64,000 nt of DNA from Candidatus Micrarchaeia archaeon (GTDB lineage: Archaea > Micrarchaeota > Micrarchaeia > Anstonellales > Anstonellaceae): contig JBAYMR010000008.1 of NCBI GenBank assembly GCA_041663445.1, forward strand, positions 662 to 64,661, read 5' to 3'. The notes under the pieces were generated by a model, which saw nothing but the letters and a program-made list of their open reading frames with translations, was not told the origin of the DNA and did not search any database. Of the stretch, positions 19,087 to 44,387 are shown one piece after another. The first letter of the stretch is position 1. Every line of letters starts with the position of its first letter. The translations under genes and the position numbers were made by a program.

Positions 19087-19629
19087 TTACAGCTCAATAT
19101 ACATTGGCACTGTTTCCATTTTTGAAGGGTCTGCAATGAATGTCCTGAAACCTTTGTGCATGTACCATTCAATCTTGTCAGTGTAAACATGTGCCATAAG
19201 ATAGGCACAACCGATTTCATTTTGCATCTGCAGGGCTTTGCTTGCAGCATATGCAAGAAGAAGCGATGCCCCTCCTCGGGTTTCCTCTCGCTTGTCTGTT
19301 GCCAGCTTGCCAATAAGAAGCGCCGGGAAATTCCTCGGAAACTCTTTTGGATATTCCTTTAGCCGCTTTCCCCTGAATTCAAATTCATCGCCTTCAGGTA
19401 TTTTCAGTGCGCCCATAGAAAGTGTGATGTAAGAGATAAGCCGGTTCCCTTCCTTGCTGAAAAGGAGATATGTCGCGCCAAGGTTGAGATTTTGGTATCC
19501 AAGGGCGTCTTTTGCCAGGAAGTCATTCAACTCCTCTTTGTCAGATTCAAAAGCAGAGACAGCTGTGCAATGGGGATTGCCCAGTAGTGATATGTAACAA
19601 TCCGAATCGCCATACCTTGCGCCCGGCAT
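19087..19629 (-). CDS. GNAT-fold acetyltransferase of the toxin type (TacT/KacT/AtaT-like)
   Basis: 180 aa. The N-terminal pattern F-ESDKEELNDFLAKDAL...GATYLLFS..LISYITLSMGAL and the core LIGKLATDKREETRGGASLLLAYAASKAL match my memory of GNAT toxins (F.CG...L..FL...A; LL.RLAVD...QG.GLG..LL). Its stop codon abuts the thrS stop codon. Confidence 0.7.
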   Translation of the reverse strand: MPGARYGDSDCYISLLGNPHCTAVSAFESDKEELNDFLAKDALGYQNLNLGATYLLFSKEGNRLISYITLSMGALKIPEGDEFEFRGKRLKEYPKEFPRNFPALLIGKLATDKREETRGGASLLLAYAASKALQMQNEIGCAYLMAHVYTDKIEWYMHKGFRTFIADPSKMETVPMYIEL

Positions 19630-19638
19630 GGTTCCACC

Positions 19639-19782
19639 TTACCGTAGCTGAAGGTTAATCCTTCTTGCCTCGGCAAAAAGCCTGTCTTTTGCCGGATTGG
19701 GTTTTGGGCTGAGGATGTCATCAAGGAAGCGCTGGGCTTCCTCCTTGCTCATCTCAATGACTGTTTGTATTGGCTTTGCCAT
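19639..19782 (-). CDS. Untracked 47-aa ORF (MAKPIQTVIEMSKEEAQRFLDDILSPKPNPAKDRLFAEARRINLQLR), candidate antitoxin partner of the GNAT toxin
   Basis: Translated by hand; it falls below the ORF-track size cutoff. It ends 9 nt before the GNAT start. GGAGAGG lies 3 nt upstream of the ATG, and a TATA-like CTTTATATAG (rc of 19814-19823) lies about 35 nt upstream. Confidence 0.5.
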   Translation of the reverse strand: MAKPIQTVIEMSKEEAQRFLDDILSPKPNPAKDRLFAEARRINLQLR

Positions 19783-19878
19783 TTTCCTCTCCGTTAATTT
19801 CTTCGCGCCCCATCTATATAAAGAATCGCGTACGGTTTTATAAACTACAAAAAAGGGATAAAAGAAAGAGCATGCTGA

Positions 19879-20727
19879 TTACATCTCGCTTGCCCCGTAA
19901 TCCTCATCAAAAACTGCGCCTGATTTTTTCTTCTTAGCCTTTGCCTGCTGCTTTTCAGATGCGCCTTCTGTTTCCAGCTGCTTGCTTCTCTTCCAGAATT
20001 CCTCAAAATACGCCTTGAACGAGTCCGCAATCTCCTGATTTGTTATCTCGACGGTAATAGGCACTTTTGCCTGCAAGCCGATAACTGCAACATCCTTGTA
20101 GCCCATGAACCATGCCGGCGTGTCTATGCTGTTCGGCATGTACCTTGCGTCGCAAAGCGCGTGCCTGTTCCTGCTTCGGAGCACGCTTATGTCGGTATCC
20201 GGGTGGAAAAGCATCCTTGCCTTTATGCCCAGCTTCGCGCGCCTTGCATGGTCCTGAAGCCAATATGCATGGAAATGCGCCTCCTGCTGCGCTGGCACGC
20301 CCATGTAATAGTACCCTTCCCCGCGCGAGAGCTTCTGGTATGTGCGCTCATGCGCGGTTATCATGCCTTTGAAGCCCATGTACACCTTTGCTTCGCTCTC
20401 CTTCGCAGAGCATTGCAAGCCGTACAATTTCGGCAAAAGTTCGTCCATTTTCAGCCGGTTTTCCCGGAATTTCCTTTCTTCCTCTTCAAGGTATTCCCTT
20501 ATCCTGGAAGGCTCGGCTGCCTGGAAATATCTTGTCTTTTCCTTAGTGATGTGCGACACCAGCCCTTTTTGCGAAAGCCGGTCCAGGAGATGGTAGATTA
20601 TTGACCTTGAAACGCCTGACTTTTCCACAATGGGGCCGGATGTGGAAGGCCCAAGCTCCAAAAGCGCGAGATAGACCTTGCTTTCGCCCTCGGTAAGCCC
20701 CGCCTGCCTCAGCATCCCGGTGTCCAT
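19879..20727 (-). CDS. TrmB-family transcriptional regulator
   Basis: MDTGMLRQAGLTEGESKVYLALLELGPSTSGPIVEKSGVSRSIIYHLLDRLSQKGLVSHI is a TrmB-type wHTH. The 101 codons upstream in the track ORF (to 21030) look non-coding and overlap the divergent promoter region. Confidence 0.85.
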   Translation of the reverse strand: MDTGMLRQAGLTEGESKVYLALLELGPSTSGPIVEKSGVSRSIIYHLLDRLSQKGLVSHITKEKTRYFQAAEPSRIREYLEEEERKFRENRLKMDELLPKLYGLQCSAKESEAKVYMGFKGMITAHERTYQKLSRGEGYYYMGVPAQQEAHFHAYWLQDHARRAKLGIKARMLFHPDTDISVLRSRNRHALCDARYMPNSIDTPAWFMGYKDVAVIGLQAKVPITVEITNQEIADSFKAYFEEFWKRSKQLETEGASEKQQAKAKKKKSGAVFDEDYGASEM

Positions 20728-21619: not shown

Positions 21620-22867
<1,248 letters not shown>

Positions 22868-23005
22868 TTTACTACCTCCTTGCCACTAAAAGCGTTGGCA
22901 TTCCTCACCGTTGCAGCATTAAAAAAGCCTATGTTACATTTGGGACAAAACGTCTCGGAAACTAGGCAATTGCTTCCGCCTTCGTCTTTGGCTTGCGCGC
23001 CGAAG

Positions 23006-23692
23006 TCAGGCAGAAGCTATCGCTTCCGCCATCTGCGTGAGCAGATTCTTCGGGTCTTTCGCCTTCACGTACGCGCTCGCAAGCAGCACGCCTTTCGCGC
23101 CAAGCTCCACTGCCTTTTTCACGTCCGATGCGCTTGAAACGCCTGCGCCGCAAAGCACCGGCGTGCCATTCACCTTTGCAACAGCCTCCACTGTCCCGCT
23201 CACCACTTCGGGCTTTGCGGTGGAAACCGAGATGCCGCTGCCGATAAGCTCCGGCGGCTCCACGGCTATGTAAGTGGGCCCGTATTTTGCCAGGCGCGCG
23301 CTTTCCTCCGCGTCCTTCGTGCAAAGCATGCTCTCCAGCCCGGCTCCCTTCAGGCGCTCAATCGTTTTCGCAATCAGTTCCTCGGGCAGCCTGTGCTCGG
23401 AGTGGTTGACAAGCGACCCCTTGCAGCCTGCTGCCTTTATTGCCTCGACGGTGAGCGTGCCCGTGAACGCGCCCTGCTCATTCGCATCTACATGCTGCGC
23501 GAAAACGTCCGTGCACGTCTGGCATGCCTCGCGTAAGTCCACCGATTGCGGCGCAACGATGATTCTCACGCCGGTAAGAAGCGACACTTCCACGGCATGC
23601 CTGCAAAGCTCGGCGCCTTTCTCGCCCAGCGACTCTGGGTAAGCCTTCAAATTCAGGGCAATTATCGGTTTCATGCTCATCACCAATGACAT
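23006..23692 (-). CDS. tpiA: Triosephosphate isomerase, short archaeal type
   Basis: About 225 aa. KPIIALNLKAY...NHSEHR...EPPELIGSG...CGAGV pattern. The start is probably at MSMKPII or MKPII. Confidence 0.9.
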   Translation of the reverse strand: MSLVMSMKPIIALNLKAYPESLGEKGAELCRHAVEVSLLTGVRIIVAPQSVDLREACQTCTDVFAQHVDANEQGAFTGTLTVEAIKAAGCKGSLVNHSEHRLPEELIAKTIERLKGAGLESMLCTKDAEESARLAKYGPTYIAVEPPELIGSGISVSTAKPEVVSGTVEAVAKVNGTPVLCGAGVSSASDVKKAVELGAKGVLLASAYVKAKDPKNLLTQMAEAIASA

Positions 23693-23803
23693 GCCGAAAT
23701 AACCTTATTAAACAATTGCCGTCTAACTGACGTTGAGGCGCCCTCCGGGCTCCAATGACCTGAAACAAGATTTGCAGATGCCGCTTTGCGGCAATCTGAA
23801 CAC

Positions 23804-23913
23804 GCCGACGTGGCAGAATCCGGTATCGCGCTAGACTCGAGATCTGATGCGGGGTTTTCCACAAGAAATCTAGTGCCCCTCGGGGCTTAGGAGTTCAAAT
23901 CTCCTCGTCGGCG
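23804..23913 (+). tRNA. tRNA-Ser (anticodon CGA) with a 26-nt intron at the canonical 37/38 position
   Basis: Acceptor GCCGACG/CGTCGGC is perfect, with discriminator G. Anticodon stem CTAGA/TCTAG forms only after removing 23842-23867. Loop CT-CGA-GA, anticodon at 23838-23840. Long variable arm TGCCCCTCGGGGCT. T arm AGGAG-TTCAAAT-CTCCT. A T6 run follows. The D stem is imperfect in my fold. Confidence 0.85.
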
Positions 23914-24170
23914 TTTTTTGCTTCCAAAAAAGCCTCCTCGGATTTTGAGCCTCCGGCTCAAAATCTCGCCGGCTTCGCCGTCGATTTCCTCGTCGGTGTT
24001 CATTTTCATTCGCGCCTCCTCAGTTTTGGCGCTTTCGCGCCAAAATCCGTCGTTGTGCTGTGGCACAACTTCGTCTCCTCGTCGGCGTTTTTTGCTTCCA
24101 AAAAAGCCTCCTCGGATTTTGAGCCTCCGGCTCAAAATCTCGCCGGCTTCGCCGTCGATTTCCTCGTCGG
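23900..24170 (+). repeat. Tandem hairpin units bounded by copies of the tRNA-Ser 3' end. 23900-23996 is repeated at 24074-24170.
   Basis: 97/97 identity by my reading. CCTCGTCGG occurs at 23903, 23988, 24077 and 24162. Perfect hairpins at 23914-23931, 23941-23965, 24024-24045 and 24053-24068, plus their copies. Confidence 0.9.
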
Positions 24171-24211
24171 CATTTTTTATTGTATTGGAAATTCTATAAA
24201 TTTCCAATAGC

Positions 24212-24239
24212 AGACAAAATCTGTCCGCAGATTTTGTCT
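24212..24239. repeat. 28-nt perfect hairpin/palindrome AGACAAAATCTG-TCCG-CAGATTTTGTCT, with a paralog at 36725-36752
   Basis: 12-bp stem. The second copy, GGACAAAGTCTG-TCCG-CAGACTTTGTCC, differs at 4 positions that form two compensatory pairs. Confidence 0.85.
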
Positions 24240-24325
24240 TTTCCAAAAATGGCGACCATTTTTCCAGCGGGAAAAATAGGGCGGCGTTTTTTATTATTCC
24301 CTTTCAATACTCCATTGGTGGTTTC

Positions 24326-24739
24326 ATGCAATCCCGCAAGGAAAAAACAGGATACTGGCTCATGCTCGGAAAAGGCGACGACGTGGTCCCCTCCATTTCC
24401 GAATGGGCGCGCAAGAACCGGATTAAGGGCGCGCAGGTGTGGGGCGTGGGCGCGGTAACCGATGCCAAGCTCGCTTGCTACTACCCGCGCTCGAAAAAAT
24501 GGAAAACCATGCCATTTTCAAGTGAAAGCTACGAGCTCCTCTCTTTCATGGGCAACATAAACGAGGACGGGCTCCACGCGCACGTCTGCATATCCGATTC
24601 CGGCTTCAGGGTATTCGGCGGGCACTTGATAAGCGCAAAAATATCCGTCTTCGGCGAATTTTTCATCCTGCCGACCTCCAAGCTTGGGAAAAAATCAGTG
24701 CCAAGCGTCGGGCTAAGAGGCATCAGCCTGGAAAAGTAG
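24326..24739 (+). CDS. PPC/DUF296-domain protein (PD1-like predicted DNA-binding protein)
   Basis: GYWLMLGKGDDVVPSISEWARKNRIKGAQVWGVGAV..YELLSFMGNI...LHAHVCISDSGFRVFGGHL...GEFFI follows the DUF296 pattern I remember. Confidence 0.75.
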   Translation: MQSRKEKTGYWLMLGKGDDVVPSISEWARKNRIKGAQVWGVGAVTDAKLACYYPRSKKWKTMPFSSESYELLSFMGNINEDGLHAHVCISDSGFRVFGGHLISAKISVFGEFFILPTSKLGKKSVPSVGLRGISLEK

Positions 24740-24746
24740 CGCGCGC

Positions 24747-25214
24747 TCACTTTTTTATTTCTCCAAGCACGCCGACGTAGTTCTTGCCCCTTTTCTTCGC
24801 GCATTTCGGGCACGTGGTGTACCACATGTAAAGCTTGCCGATTTCCATTCCCTTTTCCTTTGCGTATTCGTAAAACTCCTTGCACCACTTGCCCGTCTCC
24901 TTGAAGTCGCCCTCGTAGATTTTGCAAAGGTACTTGCCTGTCAGGCGCGCCGACTTTTCGCCCGGCACATCCTTGCCGCACGGCACATAAATGTCCATGT
25001 TGAACATCGAGGTGTGGTCAGAGAGGCACGGGCCATTTCCCCACGCTATGCCTGCCGCCTGCGTTTTCCTGAACAGGCGCGAAATAACGCTGCCAAAGTT
25101 GATGGGCATGTAAAACAGGCAAAGCACGCTTGCCTTGATGAAAGGCTCGTCGTTCCATTCGATAACCTTGCCGTCCCACGGCGCCGGGTCGAACTTCGGG
25201 CAGCATTCTTCCAT
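24747..25214 (-). CDS. Conserved-looking hypothetical protein with Cys motifs at both ends (N-terminal CC, C-terminal CPKC)
   Basis: 155 aa: MEECCPKFDPAPWDGKVIEW...YTTCPKCAKKRGKNYV. GGAGGG lies 5 nt upstream of the ATG. I cannot name the family with confidence. Confidence 0.6.
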   Translation of the reverse strand: MEECCPKFDPAPWDGKVIEWNDEPFIKASVLCLFYMPINFGSVISRLFRKTQAAGIAWGNGPCLSDHTSMFNMDIYVPCGKDVPGEKSARLTGKYLCKIYEGDFKETGKWCKEFYEYAKEKGMEIGKLYMWYTTCPKCAKKRGKNYVGVLGEIKK

Positions 25215-25238
25215 AAAATCCCTCCGTACACAGATTCA

Positions 25239-25402
25239 AGCCCCCGACGGGCGTCAAATGCGGGGCATTTGGCGCGATTTTGGCTCAATGGGCCAAAAGT
25301 CGGGCTGGCTTTCGGATGAAGTGGGAAAGCCCCCGACGAGATTTGGACTTGCGAGCATCAAAACCGAAGGTTTTGGTGCGATTTTGCGCCGAAGGCGCAA
25401 AA
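25239..25402 (-). repeat. Two hairpin units (74 and 89 nt) downstream of tRNA-Thr, each ending in a copy of the tRNA 3' end
   Basis: On the tRNA strand, the tRNA ends ...TTCAAATCCCATCGGGGGCT. Unit 1 ends TCCAAATCTCGTCGGGGGCT (rc of 25328-25347). Unit 2 ends CCCGTCGGGGGCT (rc of 25239-25251). Hairpins at 25382-25402, 25359-25375, 25278-25298 and 25255-25271. Confidence 0.85.
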
Positions 25403-25473
25403 GCCCCCGATGGGATTTGAACCCATGACATCCAGTTTACGAAACTGGCGCTCTACCGCTGAGCTACAGGGGC
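25402..25473 (-). tRNA. tRNA-Thr (anticodon CGU), no intron
   Basis: Reverse complement folds as GCCCCTG-TA-GCTC-AGCGGTA-GAGC-G-CCAGT-TTCGTAA-ACTGG-ATGTC-ATGGG-TTCAAAT-CCCAT-CGGGGGC-T. All stems pair, with one G-U in the acceptor. Confidence 0.9.
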
Positions 25474-25517
25474 GCACTCTCCGTAATTATTTTGAAAGCC
25501 TTTAAAATAGTGCGCCG

Positions 25518-26321
25518 TCAGACCGCTTCCAGCCCATGCAATATCGGTTTTCCGTCCTTTATCCATGCGAGCGCTTTCTCGGCGTCGGTTTCCTTCGCGC
25601 CCTGCTTCTTGAAATAGCGCGCGATGTTCTCGACGTCCCTCCGCAGGAATTCCTCGGCGTGCGGGTGCGCGAGGAGCACCGCCTGCGCGCAGTCCAGTAT
25701 CTTGAGCCCGTCGTCCGTAACCAGGATGTTGTACTCCGACAGGTCGGCATGCACGAATCCCGCCTGGTAAATCCTCTTTATCTGCTCGATTATGAACTCG
25801 TAGTCCTTCTGCGGGTGCGCGCTTCCCACCTGCGAAATCTGCGAGAACGCAATGTTTCCCTCGCCGAAGAATTCCATCACCACGATGTTCCGCAGGAACC
25901 CGAGCGGACGGGGCACCGCAACGCGCGCCTCGTGGAATTTGGCCAGGTTGCTGTACTCCTTCCGCGCCCAGGCAAGTATCGTTTCATACCTTTTGCGCGA
26001 GGTGCCGGCAAAGCGCGGGTCGCCGTCCAAGTAGTCGTGCATGTGGACAAAATTGGAAGTGTCAATGCGATAAATCTTGATTGCCACCTTGCCCCCTTCT
26101 TTCGTGGTGGCGAGGAAAACAATGGCCTCCTTCCCCTTGGCAATGGGGTATTCCATGGAGTCGAAGTGCCCGGACTGGCGGAGCTTGGTGATTGCAAAGC
26201 GCGTCTCGCGGTCAAACACCTGCTCTTCCAGCGGGTCCTCCCTCTTGATTTGCTTGGTTTCGCGATTCGGGCGCTTGCGGTTGCTCTGTGTTGCCATTTT
26301 CAATACCTTTTCACTCAACAA
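25518..26321 (-). CDS. RIO-type serine/threonine protein kinase (Rio1-like)
   Basis: GKEAIVFLA...VAIKIYR...VHADLSEYNILV, with no N-terminal wHTH. The start may be the ATG at 26297. Confidence 0.88.
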   Translation of the reverse strand: MLSEKVLKMATQSNRKRPNRETKQIKREDPLEEQVFDRETRFAITKLRQSGHFDSMEYPIAKGKEAIVFLATTKEGGKVAIKIYRIDTSNFVHMHDYLDGDPRFAGTSRKRYETILAWARKEYSNLAKFHEARVAVPRPLGFLRNIVVMEFFGEGNIAFSQISQVGSAHPQKDYEFIIEQIKRIYQAGFVHADLSEYNILVTDDGLKILDCAQAVLLAHPHAEEFLRRDVENIARYFKKQGAKETDAEKALAWIKDGKPILHGLEAV

Positions 26322-26453
26322 AATGGCAATAAGCCGCCGTCAAGTCCGAAGGCGGCTGTGTTGCCATACTATCACTTCAGAAGACGCGGTTAATATGGCT
26401 TGCTGTCGGAGCCCACGGGCGCGTGCTGCACATTGCGGCTCGGTGCCGCCCGC

Positions 26454-26756
26454 TTACTTGATGTGCCCCTTGTTCCTCAGCCACTCTGCCTGGTACTTGT
26501 TGTAGCGCCAGACGATGTCCGCTTTCTTGTCCCCGCCGATTTCCCAGGGTTTTATTATTACGATGTCCCCGTCGCGCACCCAGATGAAGCGGCGTATCTT
26601 CCCGGGTATCCTGCACATCCTCTCCTTCCCGTCCTTGCACTGCACGGTGAGCCTGCCTCCGCCCACGTTGCCGATTACCACGCCCAATATTTCCCCCTCT
26701 GCCTCGTTCGGGAGCTTTACCCAGCTTATCTCGGGCGGCGGTTGTGGAGTTGCCAT
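26454..26756 (-). CDS. Translation initiation factor aIF-1A
   Basis: GEILGVVIGNVGGGRLTVQCKDGKERMCRIPGKIRRFIWVRDGDIVIIKPW is the S1-like fold signature. The ATG at 26756 is preferred over the GTG at 26765. Confidence 0.92.
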   Translation of the reverse strand: MATPQPPPEISWVKLPNEAEGEILGVVIGNVGGGRLTVQCKDGKERMCRIPGKIRRFIWVRDGDIVIIKPWEIGGDKKADIVWRYNKYQAEWLRNKGHIK

Positions 26757-26765
26757 AATGAACAC

Positions 26766-27170
26766 CTAAATCCTCACTGGCGCGCGTGCGCCGCACGCTT
26801 CGCATACAAGCATCTTTACCCCGTCCTTCTCGATTATCTTGGTGTCGGGCCTCTTGCATTCCTTGCACACCACCGCCGCATCCACGAAAGCCTGCAGCTT
26901 GTCCTGCAGGTTCCGCGTATAGAATTTGCCGTTGAGCACCAGCTTCCCGCCCTGTATCGTGACCGGGACGGCGAGCTCGCGGCTGAAGTACTTGGACAGC
27001 AGCTCCGGCGGCCTCCGTATCTTCTGGAGTATGATGTCAAAATTCCTCACGAGCGTCTTGCTGCCCTGCAGGAATGATTCCACCTGCGGCGTCTCGAACC
27101 GCTCGAAGGCGAGCGTTTTTTCGGGCAGCGCCGCGCGCGCCCTGTCAAGCATTTTTTCGTAGTCATCCAT
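26766..27170 (-). CDS. Translation initiation factor aIF-2 beta subunit
   Basis: MDDYEKMLDRARAALPEK... with the C-terminal zinc ribbon VVCKECKRPDTKIIEKDGVKMLVCEACGA. The upstream 56 codons of the track ORF were rejected. Confidence 0.9.
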   Translation of the reverse strand: MDDYEKMLDRARAALPEKTLAFERFETPQVESFLQGSKTLVRNFDIILQKIRRPPELLSKYFSRELAVPVTIQGGKLVLNGKFYTRNLQDKLQAFVDAAVVCKECKRPDTKIIEKDGVKMLVCEACGARAPVRI

Positions 27171-27240
27171 CCAACTAAACCTCGTAATGGGAGGAATTTG
27201 GTACGAAAGCTTTAAAGGGCATTGGCGCATCATTGCCGCC

Positions 27241-27585
27241 ATGGCAATGGAAATCAGCCGCAAAACGCCCATTGGCGAGCTTGTGCTCAACCACCCTGTT
27301 TCAGCATCAATACTCCTTGAGCATGGCTTCCACTGCATAGGCTGCGGCCTGGCAGCTTACGAGACAATAGAGGAAGGCGCAGCCGCGCACGGCTTTGACG
27401 ACGCGGCAATCAACGCGCTCGTGCAGGAAATAAAGGACGCGGCAAGGAAAGAGGAAGAACTGCTCAGCAAGGTTGACGATTCCCTCGGAACTGGGGGTGC
27501 TGCAAGCCCCCATGCAAAAATGCCTGCGGCTAAAGAGAGCCAAAAGCCTGAAAAGGGCGGAAAGAAGAAATCAAAATCCGGCTAG
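27241..27585 (+). CDS. DUF1858-type small protein (hybrid-cluster-protein-associated redox disulfide domain) with a Lys-rich tail
   Basis: MEISRKTPIGELVLNHPVSASILLEHGFHCIGCGLAAYETIEEGAAAHG matches my memory of DUF1858. Start at 27241 or 27247 rather than 27187. Confidence 0.7.
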   Translation: MAMEISRKTPIGELVLNHPVSASILLEHGFHCIGCGLAAYETIEEGAAAHGFDDAAINALVQEIKDAARKEEELLSKVDDSLGTGGAASPHAKMPAAKESQKPEKGGKKKSKSG

Positions 27586-27617
27586 TTTTACGAGCAGGAG
27601 CGCAGCTAAAGTCCGCC
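27571..27617. repeat. Direct repeat copy A flanking the Doc cassette
   Basis: TCAAAATCCGGCTAGTTTTACGAGCAGGAGCGCA (27571-27604) matches 28158-28191 at 33/34 positions, followed by gapped similarity ending in AGTCCGCC. Confidence 0.9.
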
Positions 27618-27693
27618 TATTGCATTGAGAAGCTTCCTGTGCCCATCCACAATCTTGTTGAAGCTCGCAATTTCCTCTGATACTATTTTGAGC

Positions 27694-28101
27694 CTAGAGG
27701 CTTCGCTTGAATTCCCTGATTTTGCCATGCTTTATCCACTCCATTATTTCTTCATTCGAATAATAATCTTCTCGTACTCCCTGCATTACCCTTGCATAAT
27801 TAGGGTCATCAACTATCTTGAATTTGCCTCCATTTGAAAGCACGAATGATTTTGCTGCGATGAACGCAGTTCTCCGGTTTCCGCTTGCAAAAGCGTGTTT
27901 TTTCACAAGCGCTTCTAACAAGGCGGCTGCTTTTTTGTATATGTCTCCTTCGGCGTTTTGGCATTCCTCGACCGCTTCCATTATTTTTGGGTAGCTAAGC
28001 ACGCGGTGTGAATCGGCTTTTTTCACTTTTATCAACGTGAGCACAAGGAAATTGAATTCAACTATCCTCTCAACGCTCGGATATGCCACATCACTTTCCA
28101 T
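27694..28101 (-). CDS. Fic/Doc-family toxin (death-on-curing-like)
   Basis: The core KHAFASGNRRTAFIAAKSFVLSNGG fits the Doc/Fic motif H-x-F-x-(D/x)-(G/A)-N-(K/R)-R-T-A. Start at the ATG at 28101 (MESDVAYPSVERIVEFN), which lies 26 nt downstream of a TTTATAAA box. The track start at 28161 lies inside the flanking repeat. Confidence 0.8.
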   Translation of the reverse strand: MESDVAYPSVERIVEFNFLVLTLIKVKKADSHRVLSYPKIMEAVEECQNAEGDIYKKAAALLEALVKKHAFASGNRRTAFIAAKSFVLSNGGKFKIVDDPNYARVMQGVREDYYSNEEIMEWIKHGKIREFKRSL

Positions 28102-28123
28102 GAGGTGAATATGCCGAAGGCTG

Positions 28124-28131
28124 TTTATAAA
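28124..28131 (-). promoter_or_regulatory. TATA-box-like TTTATAAA positioned for a leaderless Doc transcript
   Basis: Its centre is about 26 nt upstream of the ATG at 28101, which is the archaeal TATA-to-TSS spacing. Confidence 0.4.
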
Positions 28132-28157
28132 TATGCTTTCTCCCGGAAAAATTGTGC

Positions 28158-28202
28158 TCAAAATCCGGCTAGTTTTACAAGCAGGAGCGCAAGCAGTCCG
28201 CC
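28158..28202. repeat. Direct repeat copy B flanking the Doc cassette. It also encodes the real 3' end of the presenilin-like gene.
   Basis: See copy A. The offset between copies is 587 bp. Confidence 0.9.
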
Positions 28203-29048
28203 CAGGCAGATTGGCGGGAGCGCGGGAAGGAAAACCCTTTGCTTGGACACGAACTTCAGAAGCGCGTAGAGCGCGATGGTGGAGCCCGTGGCAACAGCAA
28301 GCGAGTAAATCAGGCCGTTGGGGCCAAGCGTATAAGCCGACACTGCAACCATGGCGGGGACGGACAGGTCGCCGGTCCCAAGGTCCAGCCTGTCCCCGTC
28401 CCTGTTCGCGCGCTCCACGTACGCTTCGGCGTTTTCATCCTGCTTCCTTGCAGGCGCCTCTTTCGCAGTCACCGCGAATGACAGGTCCCGCGTGGAAAGC
28501 TCGCGCGCCATCTCCACCATATGCCTTGTCTTGAAGACCGCGATGTAGTCGTATATCGAGAGCAGGATTGTGAAAATGACCGCGGGCAGGAAACCGAGCG
28601 AAAAGCCGAATATCGCCCCCACCCCCGCGCTGGATATTATGGCGGCGGCATTCTTTGCCCCTGCCCAGGCGAATTTTGCGGCTGCAAGCAGCGCGCCCAG
28701 CACGCCGCCGAAAGCAAGCGCCTCCAGCAGCCCCATGTTAAGCGGGAACAGCGCGAAGGCGAAGAAAACTATGCTTGACGCGGAAAATATCACCATCGCC
28801 TCGAGGAGCCGGAACATCATCATTCCCTTGTAGTAGCGCGCAGCAAGTATCACCGCGACTGCGCCGAAAAGTATGTATCCGAGGAAAAACAGCGCGTTCA
28901 TGGGGTCGTTGGCAGTCGGCATGGGCGCAACGGAAAGCGACTGGATGTCCGGGTTCGTCATTGCGCCCTGTATGAGCACAACTCCGGCGTATATCCCGAT
29001 TATCTGCGTGAGCGCGAAGAACAATGCGACCTGGAAGTAAGTTTTCAT
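28158..29048 (-). CDS. Presenilin / signal-peptide-peptidase family intramembrane aspartyl protease (peptidase A22)
   Basis: All three family motifs are present in a polytopic protein: YD (LLSIYDYIAVF), GxGD (LDLGTGDLSVPAM) and PAL (FLPALPP). Start at MKTYFQV (29048). Confidence 0.88.
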   Translation of the reverse strand: MKTYFQVALFFALTQIIGIYAGVVLIQGAMTNPDIQSLSVAPMPTANDPMNALFFLGYILFGAVAVILAARYYKGMMMFRLLEAMVIFSASSIVFFAFALFPLNMGLLEALAFGGVLGALLAAAKFAWAGAKNAAAIISSAGVGAIFGFSLGFLPAVIFTILLSIYDYIAVFKTRHMVEMARELSTRDLSFAVTAKEAPARKQDENAEAYVERANRDGDRLDLGTGDLSVPAMVAVSAYTLGPNGLIYSLAVATGSTIALYALLKFVSKQRVFLPALPPICLGGLLALLLVKLAGF

Positions 29049-29073
29049 TTTTTCACCAATGTTTGCCCGATTG

Positions 29074-29526
29074 CTATTTCTTCCTCTTGAGCTTCTTAAG
29101 CGCGTCCTCGAACGAGTCAATGTCCGTGAACGAGCGGTACACGGACGCGAAGCGTATGTAAGCGACGTCGTCCACCTTGCGCAGGCGCTCCATCACAAGC
29201 TCGCCGATGCCGTTTGTCTCAATCTCCTTTTTCCCGCTCTTCCGCAGCTTCCCTTCCACCCAGTTCGCCATCTCCTCAATCTGCTCGCGGGAAACCGGGC
29301 GCTTTTCGCACGACCTTTCCAGGCCGGACATGAGCTTGCGCCTGTCGAACTTCTCGCGCCTGCCGTCCTTTTTTATCACGAAGATGTCCTCCTTGTCCAC
29401 CTCCTCGTACGTGGTGAACCTGCGCTTGCACTTGGAGCACTCGCGGCGGCGCCTGATGCGGAAGTCGTCGGTGTCGCGGCTGTCCACGACATCCGTTTCG
29501 CTGTGCGCGCAATAAGGGCATCTCAT
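29074..29526 (-). CDS. nrdR: NrdR-type transcriptional repressor (zinc ribbon plus ATP-cone)
   Basis: MRCPYCAHSETDVVDSRDTDDFRIRRRRECSKCKRRFTTYEEV followed by an ATP-cone-like segment; 150 aa. Confidence 0.9.
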   Translation of the reverse strand: MRCPYCAHSETDVVDSRDTDDFRIRRRRECSKCKRRFTTYEEVDKEDIFVIKKDGRREKFDRRKLMSGLERSCEKRPVSREQIEEMANWVEGKLRKSGKKEIETNGIGELVMERLRKVDDVAYIRFASVYRSFTDIDSFEDALKKLKRKK

Positions 29527-29641
29527 GGGAAGGGATGGCGCAAGTAGGATTAAAAAAGCGAGTGGCGCCTTTTTAGGCGGGAGGATGCGGCGGCATTCCG
29601 CACCAATAAAAGGGTTGCCGTGCTATCCTTCGCGTGGTAAT

Positions 29642-30562
29642 ATGCTATACGACATAATCGTGGTCGGGTCGGGCGTTTCCGGGCTGGCGGGGGCAATGTA
29701 TGCGGGCAGGCTGGGCCTCAAGACGCTGGTGATAGGCGAAATGCGCGGCGGCTCCATCACGCTCACCCACATGGTGGAAAACTATCCCGGTTTCATCTCG
29801 ATTGGCGGCATGGAGCTTGCCGACAAGATTGAGGCGCACGCGCGCGCCTACCCCAACGTGGAAATAAAGGACGGGAAAGCCTCCAAAATCGCGCGCAAAT
29901 CCGACGACACGTTTTCCATCGAGTCAGACGCCGGCAAGTACGAATGCAGGACGGTGCTTTACGCAACTGGCACGGAATGGAGGAAGCTCGGGGTAAAGGG
30001 GGAAAAGGAGTTCGCCAACAAGGGCGTGCACTACTGCGCGCTTTGCGACGGCGGCTTTTACAAGGGAAAAACGGTGGCGGTAATCGGCGGCGCGGACTGC
30101 GCGGTGAAGGATACGCTGCTGCTTACGCAGTTCGCAAGCAAGGTCTATGTAATCTACCGCGGCGACAGGATACGCGCGGAGCCGGCGAACTACGACGCCC
30201 TCGTCAAGCACCCGAAAATAGAAATCATCTACAACACCAACGTGCTGGAAATCCTTGGCGAGAAAAAGGCAAGCGGCGTCATTCTTGACAAGCCCTACAA
30301 CGGGAGCGGCAGGCTTCCCCTCGACGCGGTTTTCGTGGCGGTGGGCCACTCGCCCCTCTCCGCGCTGGCAAAGGAAGCCGGCGTGGAAACAGACTCCAAA
30401 GGCTACGTGAAAATCAACCGCAACTCGGAAACATCCGTGCCCGGCTTTTTCGCGGCGGGCGACGTGTCGGACAACCGCTTCAAGCAGGTGATAACCGGCG
30501 TTGGCGAGGCAGTGAACGCGGCATATTCCGCTTATTCATATCTTGAGGAAAAGAAAAAATGA
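29642..30562 (+). CDS. trxB: Thioredoxin-disulfide reductase
   Basis: YDIIVVGSGVSGLAGAMYA (FAD site), the redox CALCDG motif, VAVIGGADCA (NADPH site) and GFFAAGDV. Start at the ATG at 29642. Confidence 0.9.
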   Translation: MLYDIIVVGSGVSGLAGAMYAGRLGLKTLVIGEMRGGSITLTHMVENYPGFISIGGMELADKIEAHARAYPNVEIKDGKASKIARKSDDTFSIESDAGKYECRTVLYATGTEWRKLGVKGEKEFANKGVHYCALCDGGFYKGKTVAVIGGADCAVKDTLLLTQFASKVYVIYRGDRIRAEPANYDALVKHPKIEIIYNTNVLEILGEKKASGVILDKPYNGSGRLPLDAVFVAVGHSPLSALAKEAGVETDSKGYVKINRNSETSVPGFFAAGDVSDNRFKQVITGVGEAVNAAYSAYSYLEEKKK

Positions 30563-30598
30563 GCCTGCATACGGCTCGAAAACCATCAAGGGCTACGC

Positions 30599-31984
30599 AT
30601 GGAAATCATAACAAAACCCGGCCAGCTGAAAAAGGAGCTAGGCCTCCTGGGCAGCTTTTCCATGGGCTTTGCCGACGTGGGCGCTGACATTTTCCTGGCG
30701 CTCGGCCTCATCGCGGCGTATGCGCACGGCCTCATGCCGTTCGCCATCCTCATTGCCGCCATAGTCTATGTGACGTCTGGCCTGTCCTACGCCGAGCTTG
30801 GCTCGGCAATCCCGGTTTCAGGCGGCTCGTCATCGTTCGGCAAGCGCGCGTTCGGGCCGCTTGCAGGCTTCATTGCGGGCTGGGGCCTGATGCTCGACTA
30901 CACTATAGACATCGCGCTGTTCGCCGTGGCGTCGGCAGGCTACCTCTCATTTTTTTTCCCGGCGATGTCCGTGCCGCTTGTGGCGTCCGCGCTGATATTC
31001 ATCCTGTTGCTTGTGAATCTGCTCGGCATACGCGAGTCCTCGTTCGTGAACTCCGCGCTCACCGTGGTGGTGATAATCATCCTCATAGCCATTATTGACC
31101 TCGGCTACACTTCCGCGTTTTCAACCGAGCGCTTCCTTGCCGGCGTGGTGCCGGTGGAGGAAGGCCCCGGCTGGCACGATTTCCTCTACTCCATCACGCT
31201 TGCAATGGTTGCGTTCGTGGGCATCGAGAGCATCTCGCAGGGCGCCGAGGAGACGCGCCGGCCTGAAAAGATAATCCCCCGCGCCACCTTCATGGCGCTT
31301 TTCTTCGTCCTGCTTTTTGCCACGTTGCTTTCCGTCATGGCGCTCGGCATCGTCTCGCCCAAGGCGCTTGCAGACAACATGAGCAGCCCCCTCGTGCCAA
31401 TCGTGCAGGCGCTTCCGTTCGCCAACCTGCTCGTGCCAATCGTGGCGTTCGCGGGCTTCCTTGTCTGCTTCGTGTCGGCAAACACGGGCATAATCGGCGT
31501 GTCGCGCGTGGCGTACTTCATGAGCAAGGTGGGCATGATATCCCGCAGGGTAAACTGGCTCCACCCGAAGTTCTGCACGCCCTGGCTCACCATAATAATT
31601 TTCTCCCTTATCGCGATGGCGCTTGCCTACAGCGGCGACATGATTTTCCTGGGCGAGCTTTACGCGTTCGGCGCGCTCACCGCCTACACCATGACGAACT
31701 TCTCGCTTCTCAAGCTGCGCATTTCCGAGCCCGACCTGCCCCGCCCGTTCAAGGTGCCCCTGAACATAAGGGTTGGCAGGGCAGACATTTCCATCATCAC
31801 GATAATCGGCGCGGTCTCGTGCGTCGCCATCTTCGGGCTCGTCGCGCTCCTGCACGTGGAGGGCAGGAACTTCGCCGCGCTCTGGTTCGCGGCCGGCTTT
31901 GCCTACTTCTTCCTCTACCGCGCGTACAACGAGAACAGGAACTTCCGCGAGGCGGTGGAGAAAGTCCAGAAAATCGTCTTTTGA
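30599..31984 (+). CDS. APC-superfamily amino acid/polyamine permease
   Basis: 461 aa, about 12 TM segments, with an N-terminal LGLLGSFSMGFADVGADIF pattern typical of APC transporters. Confidence 0.8.
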   Translation: MEIITKPGQLKKELGLLGSFSMGFADVGADIFLALGLIAAYAHGLMPFAILIAAIVYVTSGLSYAELGSAIPVSGGSSSFGKRAFGPLAGFIAGWGLMLDYTIDIALFAVASAGYLSFFFPAMSVPLVASALIFILLLVNLLGIRESSFVNSALTVVVIIILIAIIDLGYTSAFSTERFLAGVVPVEEGPGWHDFLYSITLAMVAFVGIESISQGAEETRRPEKIIPRATFMALFFVLLFATLLSVMALGIVSPKALADNMSSPLVPIVQALPFANLLVPIVAFAGFLVCFVSANTGIIGVSRVAYFMSKVGMISRRVNWLHPKFCTPWLTIIIFSLIAMALAYSGDMIFLGELYAFGALTAYTMTNFSLLKLRISEPDLPRPFKVPLNIRVGRADISIITIIGAVSCVAIFGLVALLHVEGRNFAALWFAAGFAYFFLYRAYNENRNFREAVEKVQKIVF

Positions 31985-32116
31985 TGCTGGGCTGCCTGCA
32001 AAGCACCCGCTTTTTGCAGTCAACTTTATTCAGCCCAACAGTCAAGCGAGCGGGCCGCTGTAATTTTTTGAAGCTTTCGCTGTCAATCTGAAAAAATAAA
32101 GAAAAAAGAAGGCAAC

Positions 32117-33025
32117 TTACAGGGTTACCTTCAGGTTGAGTTCCTTCTTGAGTTCGCGGTAGCGGTTCCTGATTGTCACTTCTGTTACGCCAGCGACGTC
32201 AGCCACTTCCTTCTGCGTGCGCCTCTCGCCGTACATTGCGGATGCGATGTAAACGGCTGCCGCGGCAACGCCTGTCGGCCCGCGCCCTGAGATGAGCCCT
32301 TTCGCAATCGCCTTCTTGAGAAGCGAAATCGCCCTCTCCTGCACGTGCCCTGACAGCTTGAGCGCTGCCGTGAACTTCGGCACATAGTGCGCAGGGTCGG
32401 TGAGCGGGACGTCTATGTCGAGCTCGCGCCTCACAAAGCGGTACGCCCTCCCGATTTCCTTCTTCTCGATTCCTGAAACGCGCGAAATCTCGTCCAGCGT
32501 CCTCGGGATGCCCTGCATCCTGCATGTCGCGTAAATCACGGCGGACACCACCGACTCGATGAGCCTTCCGCGGATGAGCTCCGCCTTGATGCACTTCCTG
32601 TAAAGGAGTGCTGCCGACTCGCGGATGGAGTCCGGCAGGCCGAGGTAGGATGCAATCCTGTCAAGCTCGGAAAGCGCGATGGCAAGGTTCCTCTCCATTG
32701 ACGATGCGATGGATGCCCTCTTGTGCCACTTCCTCATGCGGTACAGCTGCGCCTGCTTCTTGGGCGAAATCTTGGCGCCGCGTATGTCGCGGTTGTACTG
32801 GTCAATTTCAGTGACAAGCCCCTTGTTCGGGCGCATGAACTTGATTGGTGCGCCGCCTCTCGCGCGCTTCTCGCGCTGCTCGGCGTCGAACGCGCGCCAC
32901 TCGGGCCTCGGGTCCTCTAGGTTTTCCGCAATGATGAGCCCGCAATTTGAGCAGACGATTTCCCCTTTTTCGTAGTCCCGCGTAAGCCTTGCGCTTCCGC
33001 ATTCAGGGCATTTCTCGATAGCCAA
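32117..33025 (-). CDS. tfb: Transcription initiation factor IIB (TFB)
   Basis: N-terminal zinc ribbon CPECGS...CSNCG, two cyclin-like repeats, 302 aa. Confidence 0.95.
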   Translation of the reverse strand: MAIEKCPECGSARLTRDYEKGEIVCSNCGLIIAENLEDPRPEWRAFDAEQREKRARGGAPIKFMRPNKGLVTEIDQYNRDIRGAKISPKKQAQLYRMRKWHKRASIASSMERNLAIALSELDRIASYLGLPDSIRESAALLYRKCIKAELIRGRLIESVVSAVIYATCRMQGIPRTLDEISRVSGIEKKEIGRAYRFVRRELDIDVPLTDPAHYVPKFTAALKLSGHVQERAISLLKKAIAKGLISGRGPTGVAAAAVYIASAMYGERRTQKEVADVAGVTEVTIRNRYRELKKELNLKVTL

Positions 33026-33262
33026 TCTCCCACCTCGATATCCACTAGCATCGCTGATAGTTAGATTTTAAAAAGTTGTTATCCCGTTATTAATAGAAGA
33101 GTTTATAAACTTTTCTAGGGCTCAGAGGGAAAAAACTAGCGCGAAAGCAGGTAAACCACTGCAACCACGGCGATTATCATCACGCCTGCAAATATCAGCC
33201 TGTCAACCATGCATGGGTAATGGATTTCTCTTTTTATAAAGCTTTCATGCCCAATCACAAGC

Positions 33263-34426
33263 ATGAAGGTCGCCTTCGTAACAGACACACATTTCGGCTA
33301 CCGCCGCTTTGAAACGGACGCGCACAATCAGGGCAGGGAAGCCATCCTTTCAGCCGCGCGCGAGGCAGACCTCCTCATACTTGGCGGGGACAACTTCGAC
33401 ACGCCGCTGCCCCGCATGGAAACCCTCGCCGACGTGACCACCATCCTCTGCGAGGCGCTTGCCATCTTCCATTCGCGCGGCATCGAAGGCGTGCCGATAT
33501 ACGCAATCCATGGCAACCACGACAGGCGCGCCAAGGGGTTTGTGCACCCGACCGGGCTTTTGGCGCAGGCCGGGCTTCTGCAGAACTTCCACAACCACAC
33601 CATCCTGCACAGGCACGGCGGCGAGCAGGCCGCCATCTCCGGCATGGGCAGCGTGCCCGAGGACATGGCGCGCGCAGCGCTTCCGCAGGCAGCCTGCAAG
33701 CCGGTGCAAGGCGCATTCAACATCTTCGCGGTGCACCAGTCCTTCCAGGAATTCGACGTCTCAGGCAACGACTCTTTCATAACGTTTGACGACCTTCCGG
33801 GCGGCTATGACCTTTACCTCTGCGGGCACGTGCACCAGCCCTGCCTGTCAGGCAAGGTGCTGAACCCCGGGAGCACCGTGGTGACCCAGATGCGCAAGGA
33901 CGAGGTTGGCCCGCGCGGCTGGCTCCTTTACGACACCCGTTCGCGCAAGGCGGAATTCCGCCCAATCTCCTCCCGCCAGCTTTTCCATTCCATCCTTGCA
34001 TTCGACGCCGCAAAGCCCGACGAAATAAGGGCGAAGGTCGGGGCCGAAGCCTCGCGCCTCCTTTCATCCGCGCCCGCAGGCGCGCCCGCCCCGCTCATAA
34101 AAATCGTGGTGAAGGGCACGCTTGCACAGGGCTTCGGCGCTGCCGACCTTTCCCTGCCGCATTTTGGCGAAAACGTCTTCATTGACAACGGCATGAACTC
34201 GGAGAACCTGAAGGAGAGAATCGCGCAAATCAAGCTCTCGCGCGAGAAAAAGCTCTCCGCGCGGCAGCAGGGCATGGAAATACTCAGGCGCAAGCTGGAA
34301 GACGCGCATTTCACGCTCGGCGACCCCGAGCAGGTTTTCGAGATGCTCCTTGAGGGGAACGGGAAGCTCCTTGCAGAGATAAAGGAAAAGATAGAAAAAG
34401 AGGGGGGCGCGCCTGCAAAAGGCTAG
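33263..34426 (+). CDS. mre11: Mre11/SbcD-type DNA repair metallophosphoesterase
   Basis: VTDTHFG, GGDNFD, HGNHD and GHVH phosphoesterase motifs in the right order. No rad50 gene is adjacent. Confidence 0.8.
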   Translation: MKVAFVTDTHFGYRRFETDAHNQGREAILSAAREADLLILGGDNFDTPLPRMETLADVTTILCEALAIFHSRGIEGVPIYAIHGNHDRRAKGFVHPTGLLAQAGLLQNFHNHTILHRHGGEQAAISGMGSVPEDMARAALPQAACKPVQGAFNIFAVHQSFQEFDVSGNDSFITFDDLPGGYDLYLCGHVHQPCLSGKVLNPGSTVVTQMRKDEVGPRGWLLYDTRSRKAEFRPISSRQLFHSILAFDAAKPDEIRAKVGAEASRLLSSAPAGAPAPLIKIVVKGTLAQGFGAADLSLPHFGENVFIDNGMNSENLKERIAQIKLSREKKLSARQQGMEILRRKLEDAHFTLGDPEQVFEMLLEGNGKLLAEIKEKIEKEGGAPAKG

Positions 34427-34474
34427 AACTCCGCCCAAAAAAGTCAAGGCTGCTCTGGAAAAAGACCGGGCTGA

Positions 34475-35734
34475 CTAGAATTCCACCCTGTCGCAGCGCA
34501 TGTAGTCGCGCAGCGCCTTGGGCACTTCAAAGCCGTTCTCGTCCTGGTAATTTTCCATGATGGCAATCATCGTCCTGCCCACTGCAAGCCCGCTGCCGTT
34601 CAGCGTGTGCACGAACTCCGGCTTTCCCGCGCGCCTGAAGCGTATGTTCGCGCGCCTTGCCTGGAAGTCCGTGCAGTTCGAGCATGACGAAATCTCGCGG
34701 TACTTGTCCTGCGAGGGCAGCCATACCTCGATGTCATAGGTTTTCGCAGCCGAAAAGCCAAGGTCGCCGGTGCAAAGCTCAATCACGCGATATGGAAGGT
34801 CAAGCTTCTGGAGCACCGACTCCGCATCCTTTGCGAGCTTCTCCAGCTCGTGGAACGACTCTTCGGGCTTGGTGAATTTCACAAGCTCCACCTTGTCGAA
34901 CTGGTGCTGGCGCATTATGCCCTTGATGTCCTTCTGGTACGAGCCTGCCTCGCGCCTGAAGCACGTGGAATACGCGCAGAAGCCCATCGGGAGCTGCTCC
35001 TCGGCCAATATCTCCCCGGAGAACATGTTCGTGACCGGCACTTCCGCGGTTGGTATCATGTACAGGTCCTCTTCCTCTATCTTGTACTGCTCCACCGCGA
35101 ATTTCGGGAACTGCCCCGTGCCGACCATCGCCTTCCTGTTCACCATGAACGGCGGCAGCACTTCGGTGTATCCGTTCATCACCTGGAGGTCCAGCATGAA
35201 ATTTATGAGCGAGCGCTCAAGCCGCGCTGCAAGCCCCTTGAGGAAAACAAAGCGGTGCCCCGACAGCTTCGCGCCCCTCTCGAAATCAATCAGCCTCTTG
35301 TCCGCGACCTCGTAGTGGGGCTTGGCGTCCTTGCTTGTGGGCCTTGGCATGCCCCACTTGCGCACTTCCGGGTTGCTTGCCTCGTCCTTGCCAACCGGCA
35401 CGCTCTTGTCGGGGATGTTTGCAACGGTAAGGAGTATCTCGTTCATCTGCGCCTCGAGCGCATTTGCCTTCTCATCGGCTGCGGAAATGTCTGCTGCGAG
35501 CTTTTTCGTGGTGGCGAGTATCGCATCCGCGCTTTCCCCCTTTTTCTTCGCCTCTGAAATCTTCATGGACGCGGCGTTCCTCTCTGCCTTCAGGTTGTCC
35601 GCCTCGTTCTTCACCACGCGCCATTTCCTGTCAAGCTCCATGAGCGCTGATGCCGGCGCAGTGTCTGCCTGCCGTTTCCTGAGCGAGTCCTCCAGGATTG
35701 ACGGGTTTTCACGGATAAGTTTCAACGAAAGCAT
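34475..35734 (-). CDS. serS: Seryl-tRNA synthetase
   Basis: N-terminal coiled-coil arm [11 protein letters not shown]... and a class II core ([16 protein letters not shown]); 419 aa. Confidence 0.95.
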
Positions 35735-38641: not shown

Positions 38642-40723
<2,082 letters not shown>

Positions 40724-43141: not shown

Positions 43142-43148
43142 TACTTGC

Positions 43149-44279: not shown

Positions 44280-44387
44280 CTGGCGCGTTCATCAGATCAA
44301 ATCTTGCAAATATTATGATGTCGGCGCTTTCACCGTATTAGCTGTTGATAAACTAGATGAACCGATACTAAACAACATCGCATTGGA

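Follow-up and report, generated by a model that had tools for sequence, protein, structure and literature searches.

We analysed a stretch of 64,000 nucleotides (nt) from a Candidatus Micrarchaeia archaeon (GCA_041663445.1, contig JBAYMR010000008.1, positions 662-64,661, forward strand), in the following simply called the window, with a focus on a small cassette with a Doc toxin gene that lies between two convergent genes. On one side of the cassette is a DUF1858 gene on the plus strand (27241..27585, its open reading frame (ORF) starting at 27187 or 27241; Pfam PF08984, 6.3e-13). On the other side, on the minus strand, lies the gene for a presenilin/signal-peptide-peptidase-like (SPP) protein of 296 amino acids (aa), here called PSH (28158..29048; PF06550, 3.5e-23), and this is the target gene whose tail is found duplicated. 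The cassette is read from the minus strand. Its left end is a promoter region (28102..28157) with TTTATAAA at 28124-28131, 22 nt before the Doc ATG at 28101. This is followed by the Doc gene (27694..28101), which encodes 135 aa with a predicted Fic fold and the motif HAFASGNRRT, and by a small ORF of 40 aa, orf40 (27606..27728), a candidate Doc antitoxin. Two copies of a direct repeat enclose these elements.

The repeat finder placed copy A at 27571-27604 and copy B at 28158-28191. Both are 34 nt long, 33/34 positions are identical in the alignment (97%), and the start-to-start spacing is 587. Within the 64-kb window no further copy was found at up to 3 mismatches, and shuffled sequence gave 0. 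The last 15 nt of the DUF1858 gene (27571-27585, ..KSKSG*), with its stop codon TAG at 27583-27585, fall in copy A. On the minus strand both copies read ALLLVKLAGF*, and the sole mismatch, CTT versus CTC, encodes Leu in either case. Copy B is the functional 3' end of PSH including its stop codon, and copy A is the functional end of DUF1858 on the plus strand and a non-functional presenilin-like pseudo-tail on the minus strand, in agreement with the ORF ends at 27585 and 28158.

An earlier reading of the same DNA, the original prediction, had proposed precisely these features: a pair of 34-nt repeats with an offset of 587, the DUF1858 stop inside it, a presenilin tail in each copy with a synonymous mismatch, and copy A serving DUF1858 and copy B the presenilin-like gene. 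All of them were recovered here. Two further details stood in part. Firstly, it had seen about 12 nt of additional gapped similarity next to the repeat. This similarity is present, as gapped alignment of the copies extends it to 47-48 columns, but it coincides with the last codons of orf40 (..AIGGL*), which are conserved family-wide in unrelated contexts. Because the AIGxL* C-terminus is kept across the orf40 family elsewhere, the extension is probably a coincidence or microhomology and not a part of the duplication. Secondly, the 40-aa ORF was said to overlap the Doc 3' end and to terminate inside copy A. The overlap is there, but the stop codon (27606-27608) misses the 34-nt copy by 1 nt and falls in the gapped extension only. 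A derivation of the orf40 C-terminus (..LNAIGGL*) from the duplicated PSH tail (..PICLGGLL..) was likewise ruled out, as AIGxL* is conserved at unrelated sites.

The unit between the repeats (27605-28157) measures 553 bp and contains only the promoter, Doc and orf40. Its GC content is 43%, 12 points lower than the 55.3% of the window. Between the Doc ATG and the PSH stop lie just 56 nt, too few for a further gene, and no Phd-like gene is found upstream of Doc. No recombinase or mobility gene was detected near the site, where the Pfam calls for 22158-35048 are housekeeping genes only; NrdR, aIF2-beta and aIF1A are among the neighbours. In this respect, too, the expectations of an AT-rich unit, of a TATA-like box before a leaderless-looking Doc gene, of a missing Phd-like gene and of no recombinase in sight were all confirmed. 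Additionally, Rfam and tRNA scans of the cassette region gave nothing relevant, the site is not a tRNA gene, and the repeat finder reported no inverted repeats bracketing the unit. The same arrangement occurs in two other assemblies, ENA ERZ27247350 and Logan SRR6484787, which are 100% identical over 12.9 kb and 5.8 kb, respectively. As these two assemblies are independent, the cassette arrangement is not an assembly artefact.

To describe the site in relatives, loci and contigs from related genomes and metagenomes were labelled with L-numbers (L004-L104). A scan with the PSH protein, using one genome per species, gave nine loci in Candidatus Micrarchaeia/Micrarchaeota genomes. PSH orthologues in related Micrarchaeota are 71-90% identical, and the gene order is kept as NrdR, PSH, a variable position, DUF1858 (reverse), aIF2beta and aIF1A. 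In the case of L006, L007 and L008, whose PSH is 82-90% identical, this position is empty: the overlap of the convergent genes, which is precisely 15 nt long (..CTAGCCGGATTTTGA), runs through a single repeat copy, and the DUF1858 orthologues end with ..KKSKSG* or ..KKSKTG*. This is the empty site that had been proposed as a check of a cassette insertion that duplicated a long piece of its target, and that insertion is borne out by it. None of these relatives showed two repeat copies without an insert, nor did the repeat turn out to be a common intergenic element. These alleles show that PSH and DUF1858 were convergent with a 15-nt overlap in an ancestor of this Micrarchaeia group. They show in the same way that the cassette entered this overlap with a target duplication of about 34 nt, by which each neighbour kept an intact 3' end. 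Altogether we consider it likely that insertion with long target duplication brought a minimal Doc-orf40 toxin-antitoxin cassette into the overlap of two convergent genes, and that this insertion is an old one.

Other relatives carry different genes at this position. In the more distant L009 and L010 it holds a peroxiredoxin and an aquaporin (MIP channel), respectively. These were ruled out as further cassettes, being ordinary genes without flanking repeats. In L004 (4958-6424) and L005 (4950-6434), the PSH/DUF1858 junction holds one ORF of 488-494 aa instead of the Doc cassette, with no match in Pfam or NCBIfam. Around this ORF, about 20 nt of the gene overlap are duplicated in decayed form, which suggests that the site was hit independently by different cargo.

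The original prediction had called the insertion recent, and this claim did not hold. A lineage-specific insertion shortly before sampling would account for a repeat of 33/34 with a synonymous difference, and also for a cassette 12 GC points below its genome and least ameliorated among the orthologous cassettes. Nevertheless, the comparison of lineages makes such an event highly improbable. An orthologous cassette with the same junctions was found in L013-16/L022, L017-19, L020, L026 and L087, the last two from the metagenome scan described below. These lineages are 78-87% identical at the DNA level. Their cassettes align over the whole length, with the left junction immediately after the PSH stop and the right junction 1-3 nt past the orf40 stop (TAG/TAA, then C/CT/GCC, then GCGCT..). 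Furthermore, at four-fold degenerate sites Doc has an identity to the window of 0.58-0.71, and four core genes have one of 0.52-0.65. Since these values are similar, the cassette has diverged together with its hosts. From the alignments, the insertion is shown to predate the divergence of at least five species-level lineages.

The repeats could also be followed through these lineages. Orthologous copies on the DUF1858 side are present in L022, L026, L020, L087 and L017. Across lineages these copies are alike at 28-31/35 positions; in L022 and L026, they match their own PSH tails at 22-23/35. The DUF1858-side copy of the window is 30-31/35 identical to those of L022 and L026, so it was inherited and not newly made, again at odds with a recent event. 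A single ancestral duplication would lead to such a likeness of pseudo-tails between lineages. The 33/34 identity in the window thus reflects retention, or possibly gene conversion, and not youth. Gene conversion is not required as an explanation here, because the PSH tail of the window is near the ancestral sequence. Concerted evolution is demonstrable only for L017-L019, where a perfect 66-nt repeat (e.g. L017 2879-2944 and 3487-3552) has the same lineage-specific substitutions in both copies and begins at an internal GCGCTYC near-repeat of PSH. This indicates a recent homogenisation, which could be gene conversion or re-duplication between the copies. In the case of L020, a third, decayed PSH-tail copy (660-771, ..GATGCTGGCGAGTCAGTCAAGCTAGCCGGGTTCTGA) lies between the real PSH stop and the Doc promoter, so that the PSH tail seems to have been duplicated more than once at this site. 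These two cases and that of L026, described below, show continued change at the site.

In a bootstrapped core-gene tree, a crown clade (100%) united the window, L022 and L087, which carry the cassette, with the empty-site loci L006-L008 and with L004 and L005, which carry the other cargo. The sister clade (68-98%) consisted of L017 and L026, both with the cassette, and the outgroups L009 and L010 are without it. The cassette-bearing L020 was left out of the tree, as only a partial PSH gene is available. The simplest history on this tree would be one gain before the split of crown and sister clades, followed by several losses.

Regarding the toxin, Doc passes the cut-offs of two family models, PF02661 (35 bits, cut-off 24) and the curated TIGR01550 DOC_P1 (54.6 bits, cut-off 38.65). 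An AlphaFold2 model (pLDDT 88.8) was compared to the PDB, and the five best matches were P1 Doc chains from Phd-Doc complexes (probability 1.0, TM 0.58-0.67). Based on family cut-offs and fold, Doc can be assigned to the death-on-curing (Fic-fold) toxins and is presumably toxic. The active-site loop HxFASGNRRT (H-A/P-F-A-S-G-N-R-R-T) is invariant in 30 Doc homologues. The closest homologues in the protein collection, with 84%, 77% and 76% identity, come from other lineages (L020, L013-16/L022 and L017-19), in which their genes likewise lie between PSH and DUF1858. A GAAAGCATATTTATAAACAGCC element, which ends 22 nt ahead of the Doc ATG, is conserved in the orthologous cassettes of L020, L022, L017 and L026. 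It fits an archaeal promoter with B recognition element (BRE) and TATA box, and the Doc transcript is probably leaderless.

The second gene, orf40, overlaps the Doc 3' end by 35 nt (27694-27728) in a different frame. A metagenome scan with the alignment of the 30 Doc homologues retrieved 80 loci, with Doc 54-88% identical to that of the window and nearly all in other contexts. In two of them the contig ends right after Doc; in all 78 assessable loci, tblastn found a homologue of orf40 downstream of Doc and on its strand, and the overlap of the two is conserved. It usually begins 25 nt before the aligned Doc end, and its length is precisely 40 codons in 52 of 75 copies. Over the non-overlapping codons 13-40, nucleotide entropy is 0.91/0.51/1.61 at codon positions 1/2/3, a pattern that argues for a protein-coding sequence. 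The consensus is MAKSeNSKDKeRykIVsEEIerFkKLIeGHrKLLeAIGnL, for which AlphaFold2 predicted one helix comprising residues 5-37 (pLDDT 88). No family match was found in Pfam, NCBIfam, PADLOC or PDB sequences. A profile search of 1.84 billion representative proteins resulted in 54 clusters, mostly 40-aa proteins. The protein is nameless in the source databases and without an NCBI source, whereas its Doc neighbour has one.

The original prediction had left Doc either an orphan or paired with the small downstream ORF. The 78/78 loci, the coding signature and the predicted helix speak for the pairing and against the orphan. Assuming that Doc is toxic, no other candidate for an antidote than orf40 is available in the unit, which holds just the promoter, Doc and orf40. 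The same reasoning was applied to new antitoxins by Makarova et al. 2009, where the known partners given for Fic/Doc are Phd, AbrB/MazE and YhfG. We conclude from the comparative and structural data that orf40 is a real gene and a candidate antitoxin of Doc that matches no described family. As expected for a type II module, Doc and orf40 form a conserved operon of two genes, one for a toxin and one for a small partner protein. The layout departs from the classical one in that the partner lies downstream, has 40 aa and is a single predicted helix with no DNA-binding fold. As a separate observation, one protein of the representative library (P0165, 164 aa) is a Doc::orf40 fusion, with a frameshift at the Doc C-terminus leading into orf40. 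A sequencing error or decay of the copy could account for it, and it may also be a natural fusion, similar to Fic proteins whose inhibitory helix is C-terminal.

Two known systems are close enough for comparison. Like VbhT-VbhA, a class I Fic system, the cassette combines a Fic-fold enzyme with a very small helical protein encoded alongside, and VbhT is a weak structural match to the Doc model (rank 27). The inhibitory motif of class I Fic antitoxins is (S/T)xxxE(G/N); by eye, the orf40 consensus lacks it. With P1 Phd-Doc (PDB 3k33, 3kh2, 3dd7) it shares the Doc fold, the death-on-curing family and a small helical partner in the operon. Unlike Phd, orf40 is encoded downstream with a 35-nt overlap, has 40 aa in a predicted single helix without a DNA-binding domain, and shows no sequence similarity to Phd; the toxin motif is HxFASGNRRT versus HxFxDANKR. 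A downstream 40-aa partner of Doc was not described in any report retrieved by our full-text literature search, which is no proof for the whole literature.

As most Doc-orf40 pairs lie elsewhere, long target duplications were also sought at these other sites. For the 58 loci whose flanks were long enough, the 400 nt upstream of Doc and the 400 nt downstream of orf40 were aligned to each other; repeat scores of L078 and L087 were excluded as indexing artefacts at contig starts. The flank-to-flank score was at least 18 in 18/58 loci and at least 30 in 12/58, and shuffled controls reached 10-15. As additional controls, 34 pseudo-modules elsewhere in the same loci scored at most 12 (0/34 at 18 or more), and in the window 1/126 pseudo-modules exceeded 13, reaching at least 18. 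This single high-scoring window control (~47.2/48.2 kb) was rejected as an insertion, since it corresponds to two ABC signature motifs inside uvrA. The flanking repeats are 20-117 nt long, are unrelated in sequence between sites and represent, by our count, about 15 distinct sites in DPANN archaea. They consist of the 3' end of the upstream gene in L024 (a uvrC homologue) and L047 (an RNA-methyltransferase-like gene), of the 5' end of the downstream gene in L090, or of a promoter region in L076 and L048/L034. The L024 gene is taken to be uvrC on the basis of 86% identity to the window ORF that we read as uvrC, and the methyltransferase label of L047 is presumed from a reading of its sequence. 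From repeat to repeat the unit measures 561-818 nt, with a left spacer of 7-109 nt and a right spacer of 0-174 nt. In seven independent loci the right repeat starts 0-5 nt past the orf40 stop.

In L076, L048/L034 and L090, the Doc ATG lies 10-18 nt past the upstream repeat, and these cassettes come without their own promoter. The promoter or 5' end of the neighbour is part of the duplicated host segment, and judging from this layout Doc-orf40 appears to be driven by one copy and the host gene by the other.

In the case of L024/L023, of which L024 is a related Micrarchaeia contig, the cassette lies directly after uvrC, with a 74-nt duplication of the uvrC tail (L024 2390-2463 and 2998-3071). 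The 3' end of uvrC in the window (49892-49969) is the single-copy counterpart of this repeat. The region between uvrC and uvrA differs between the window and L024. The window was not accepted as an empty site for this insertion, as only the left flank and the repeat match and the right flank is not syntenic.

Across Doc-orf40 modules, GC tracks the host GC (r = 0.88) and lags in GC-rich hosts, which fits an origin in AT-rich DPANN genomes. Given the long duplications at many sites, the data suggest that Doc-orf40 spreads without a recombinase of its own.

This set of sites also bears on other mobile origins. Neither terminal inverted repeats nor shared end sequences of the units were found across the sites compared. 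A transposon, an insertion sequence or a miniature inverted-repeat transposable element was excluded as the origin, as defined ends are missing and the duplications of 20-117 nt have no fixed length. More thought is required for a site-specific integrative element. In this scenario, a plasmid or provirus integrated at the PSH 3' end, the repeats are attL and attR, and the rest of the element was deleted. Like elements that use gene 3' ends, the cassette has direct repeats of a gene end that bracket foreign, AT-rich DNA and leave the target gene intact. Integrases that target gene 3' ends, with a restoring copy borne by the element, are well known, and a repeat length of 30-60 nt suits att sites (this is discussed in Furuta 2010, PMC2853133). 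Unlike att-flanked elements, the Doc unit is only 553 bp long, without an integrase, and its repeats vary in length with no common core across about 15 sites. Over ~6 kb to each side no integrase is found, and no tRNA gene is present at the site. Since the repeats at the ~15 other sites are unrelated and 20-117 nt long, a matching attP would be needed per target. Moreover, the left boundary is exactly at the stop codon of the target gene, and the precise right boundary in the seven loci mentioned above is an unlikely product of random deletion in a larger element. For these reasons, we regard an att/integrase origin as decidedly unlikely.

The features of the cassette are instead those of a class of events called insertion with long target duplication. 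This was reportedly described by Nobusato and colleagues in 2000 for restriction-modification gene units. A later screen asked for a direct repeat above 30 bp, an insert below 20 kb, an empty site in a relative and no mobility gene (Furuta, Abe & Kobayashi 2010, PMC2853133). There, duplications vary in length and are unique in the genome, insert GC is deviant and defined ends are missing; one Haemophilus case overlaps 15 bp of a gene 3' end, and no archaeal case survived the screen. The Doc cassette has a 34-nt repeat, a 553-bp insert, empty sites in L006-L008 and no mobility gene, and the repeat occurs twice in 64 kb. Like restriction-modification units, it is a small self-stabilising unit without a mobility gene, with a site-variable duplication, an empty site and deviant GC (PMC2853133). 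In contrast to them, its cargo is a candidate type II toxin-antitoxin pair, its hosts are DPANN archaea, and it lies inside the overlap of two convergent genes, where the duplication rescues both. Our full-text literature search retrieved no report of this insertion mode for toxin-antitoxin loci, and such an absence is not proof for the whole literature.

Several observations weigh against an old insertion of a toxin-antitoxin cassette by long target duplication. With respect to the mode of insertion, about two thirds of the Doc-orf40 modules show no recognisable flanking repeat; their repeats may have decayed, or these modules may have arrived differently. With respect to history, the tree of the crown clade leaves two options, repeated loss and a spread in which homologous recombination acted via the flanking core genes. 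Additionally, Doc of L026 (cassette 2458-2993) is saturated, with a four-fold identity to the window of 0.26 as compared to 0.54 for the core genes. The right junction of this cassette is the same and the left one is 16 nt shorter, which indicates at least one event of allelic replacement or of a second arrival at this site. With respect to function, the canonical Doc motif is HxFx(D/N)(A/G)NKR. The loop found here departs from it by Ser in place of Asp/Asn and Arg in place of Lys, with His, Phe, Asn and the second Arg kept. Because of these two deviating positions, the exact chemistry and target could differ from those of canonical Doc. Furthermore, orf40 lies downstream of the toxin and is without a DNA-binding domain, unlike classical Phd, and it may have a regulatory or co-toxin role. 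The toxicity of Doc, its neutralisation by orf40 and post-segregational killing or addiction are what we infer from family, fold and gene order.

Some of these points could lead to an explanation outside toxin-antitoxin systems. Doc would then be a domesticated regulatory Fic-fold enzyme and orf40 an accessory subunit or substrate mimic, and the patchy distribution would result from ordinary gain and loss at a permissive site between convergent genes. The non-canonical yet invariant catalytic motif would be expected of such an enzyme, as would a downstream partner without the DNA-binding domain of a classical antitoxin, and the position is shared with a peroxiredoxin (L009), an aquaporin (L010) and the ~490-aa ORF (L004/L005). 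What makes this explanation rather doubtful is, firstly, that Doc passes the curated death-on-curing model and has P1 Doc as its best structural match. Secondly, the pair always travels alone, in a 561-818-nt unit and at many unrelated sites, which is the behaviour of a selfish module. Thirdly, a second cassette of the same architecture in the window, described below, has a toxin of the TacT/KacT/AtaT type. We therefore retain the toxin-antitoxin cassette as the likely interpretation.

A possible sequence of events can be drawn from these observations. The cassette may have arrived as a DNA fragment that was joined into a widely staggered break, followed by fill-in. Alternatively, a template switch may have been involved, or rare illegitimate events may have been subject to selection in favour of those that spare the neighbouring genes. 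Once in place, a leaderless mRNA would start about 22-25 nt downstream of the TATA box. P1 Doc blocks translation through phosphorylation of EF-Tu. The Doc of the cassette would likewise act as a Fic-fold kinase-type toxin blocking translation, and orf40 would be translated from the same mRNA through the 35-nt overlap. The orf40 helix could then bind and neutralise Doc in the manner of the C-terminal Phd helix of P1. The cassette would resist loss because losing the pair would free the toxin. On the other hand, the flanking repeats would allow a precise excision that restores the 15-nt overlap, leading to a patchy distribution among relatives, and they would also allow homogenisation of the copies, as in the L017 lineage.

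The spread of toxin-antitoxin pairs off plasmids, phages and transposons is poorly understood, and this locus offers insert-bearing and empty alleles side by side. It illustrates how a compact genome accepted foreign DNA within the overlap of two genes with neither gene lost. As the repeats include old and homogenised ones and this one small cassette was inserted independently dozens of times, insertion with long target duplication becomes testable beyond bacterial restriction-modification units, in archaea. The work also exposes a conserved family of 40-residue proteins, previously nameless, as candidate antitoxins. As a tentative generalisation, which we do not yet favour, Doc-orf40 may be a recombinase-free selfish cassette of ~0.55 kb that settles at gene ends in gene-dense DPANN genomes, its long and variable target duplications leaving the neighbours functional; orf40 may represent a new class of single-helix antitoxin, lacking a DNA-binding domain and encoded downstream with an overlap, and the route may be common to several toxin-antitoxin families. 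If true, addiction modules in archaea would have a general route of spread that has so far not been described. For the specialist, the generality of the pattern and the unannotated antitoxin family are the greater surprise, rather than the single locus.

A second repeat pair in the window suggests the same insertion route for several toxin-antitoxin families. The repeats at 19060-19095 and 19852-19887 are 36 nt long, 29/36 identical, and bracket a unit with 46% GC (19.1-19.9 kb). It holds a 180-aa ORF on the minus strand (19087-19629), a putative GNAT-type toxin homologue with PDB matches of the TacT/KacT/AtaT type (4e-7 to 1.6e-4), and upstream of it, on the same strand, a 47-aa ORF (19639-19782). 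The unit lies between convergent genes for threonyl-tRNA synthetase (ThrRS) and a TrmB-family protein, and the duplication covers their abutting ends. Copy 1 is the real ThrRS end (..MKEINERAC*). Copy 2 combines a decayed ThrRS pseudo-tail (..KKGIKERAC*) with the real end of the convergent TrmB-family gene. In L104, whose ThrRS is 87% identical, the same toxin gene abuts ThrRS alike, and the contig ends before the remainder of the unit. In five ThrRS-bearing contigs no empty site for this cassette was found, the region downstream of ThrRS being variable.

Finally, the window contains a 5-kb AT-rich island (40776-45560, 39-46% GC) between uvrB (38642-40723) and uvrA (45616-48513). Its four ORFs are presumably glycosyltransferases, as read from their sequence, and the island is probably a horizontally acquired surface-glycan island.

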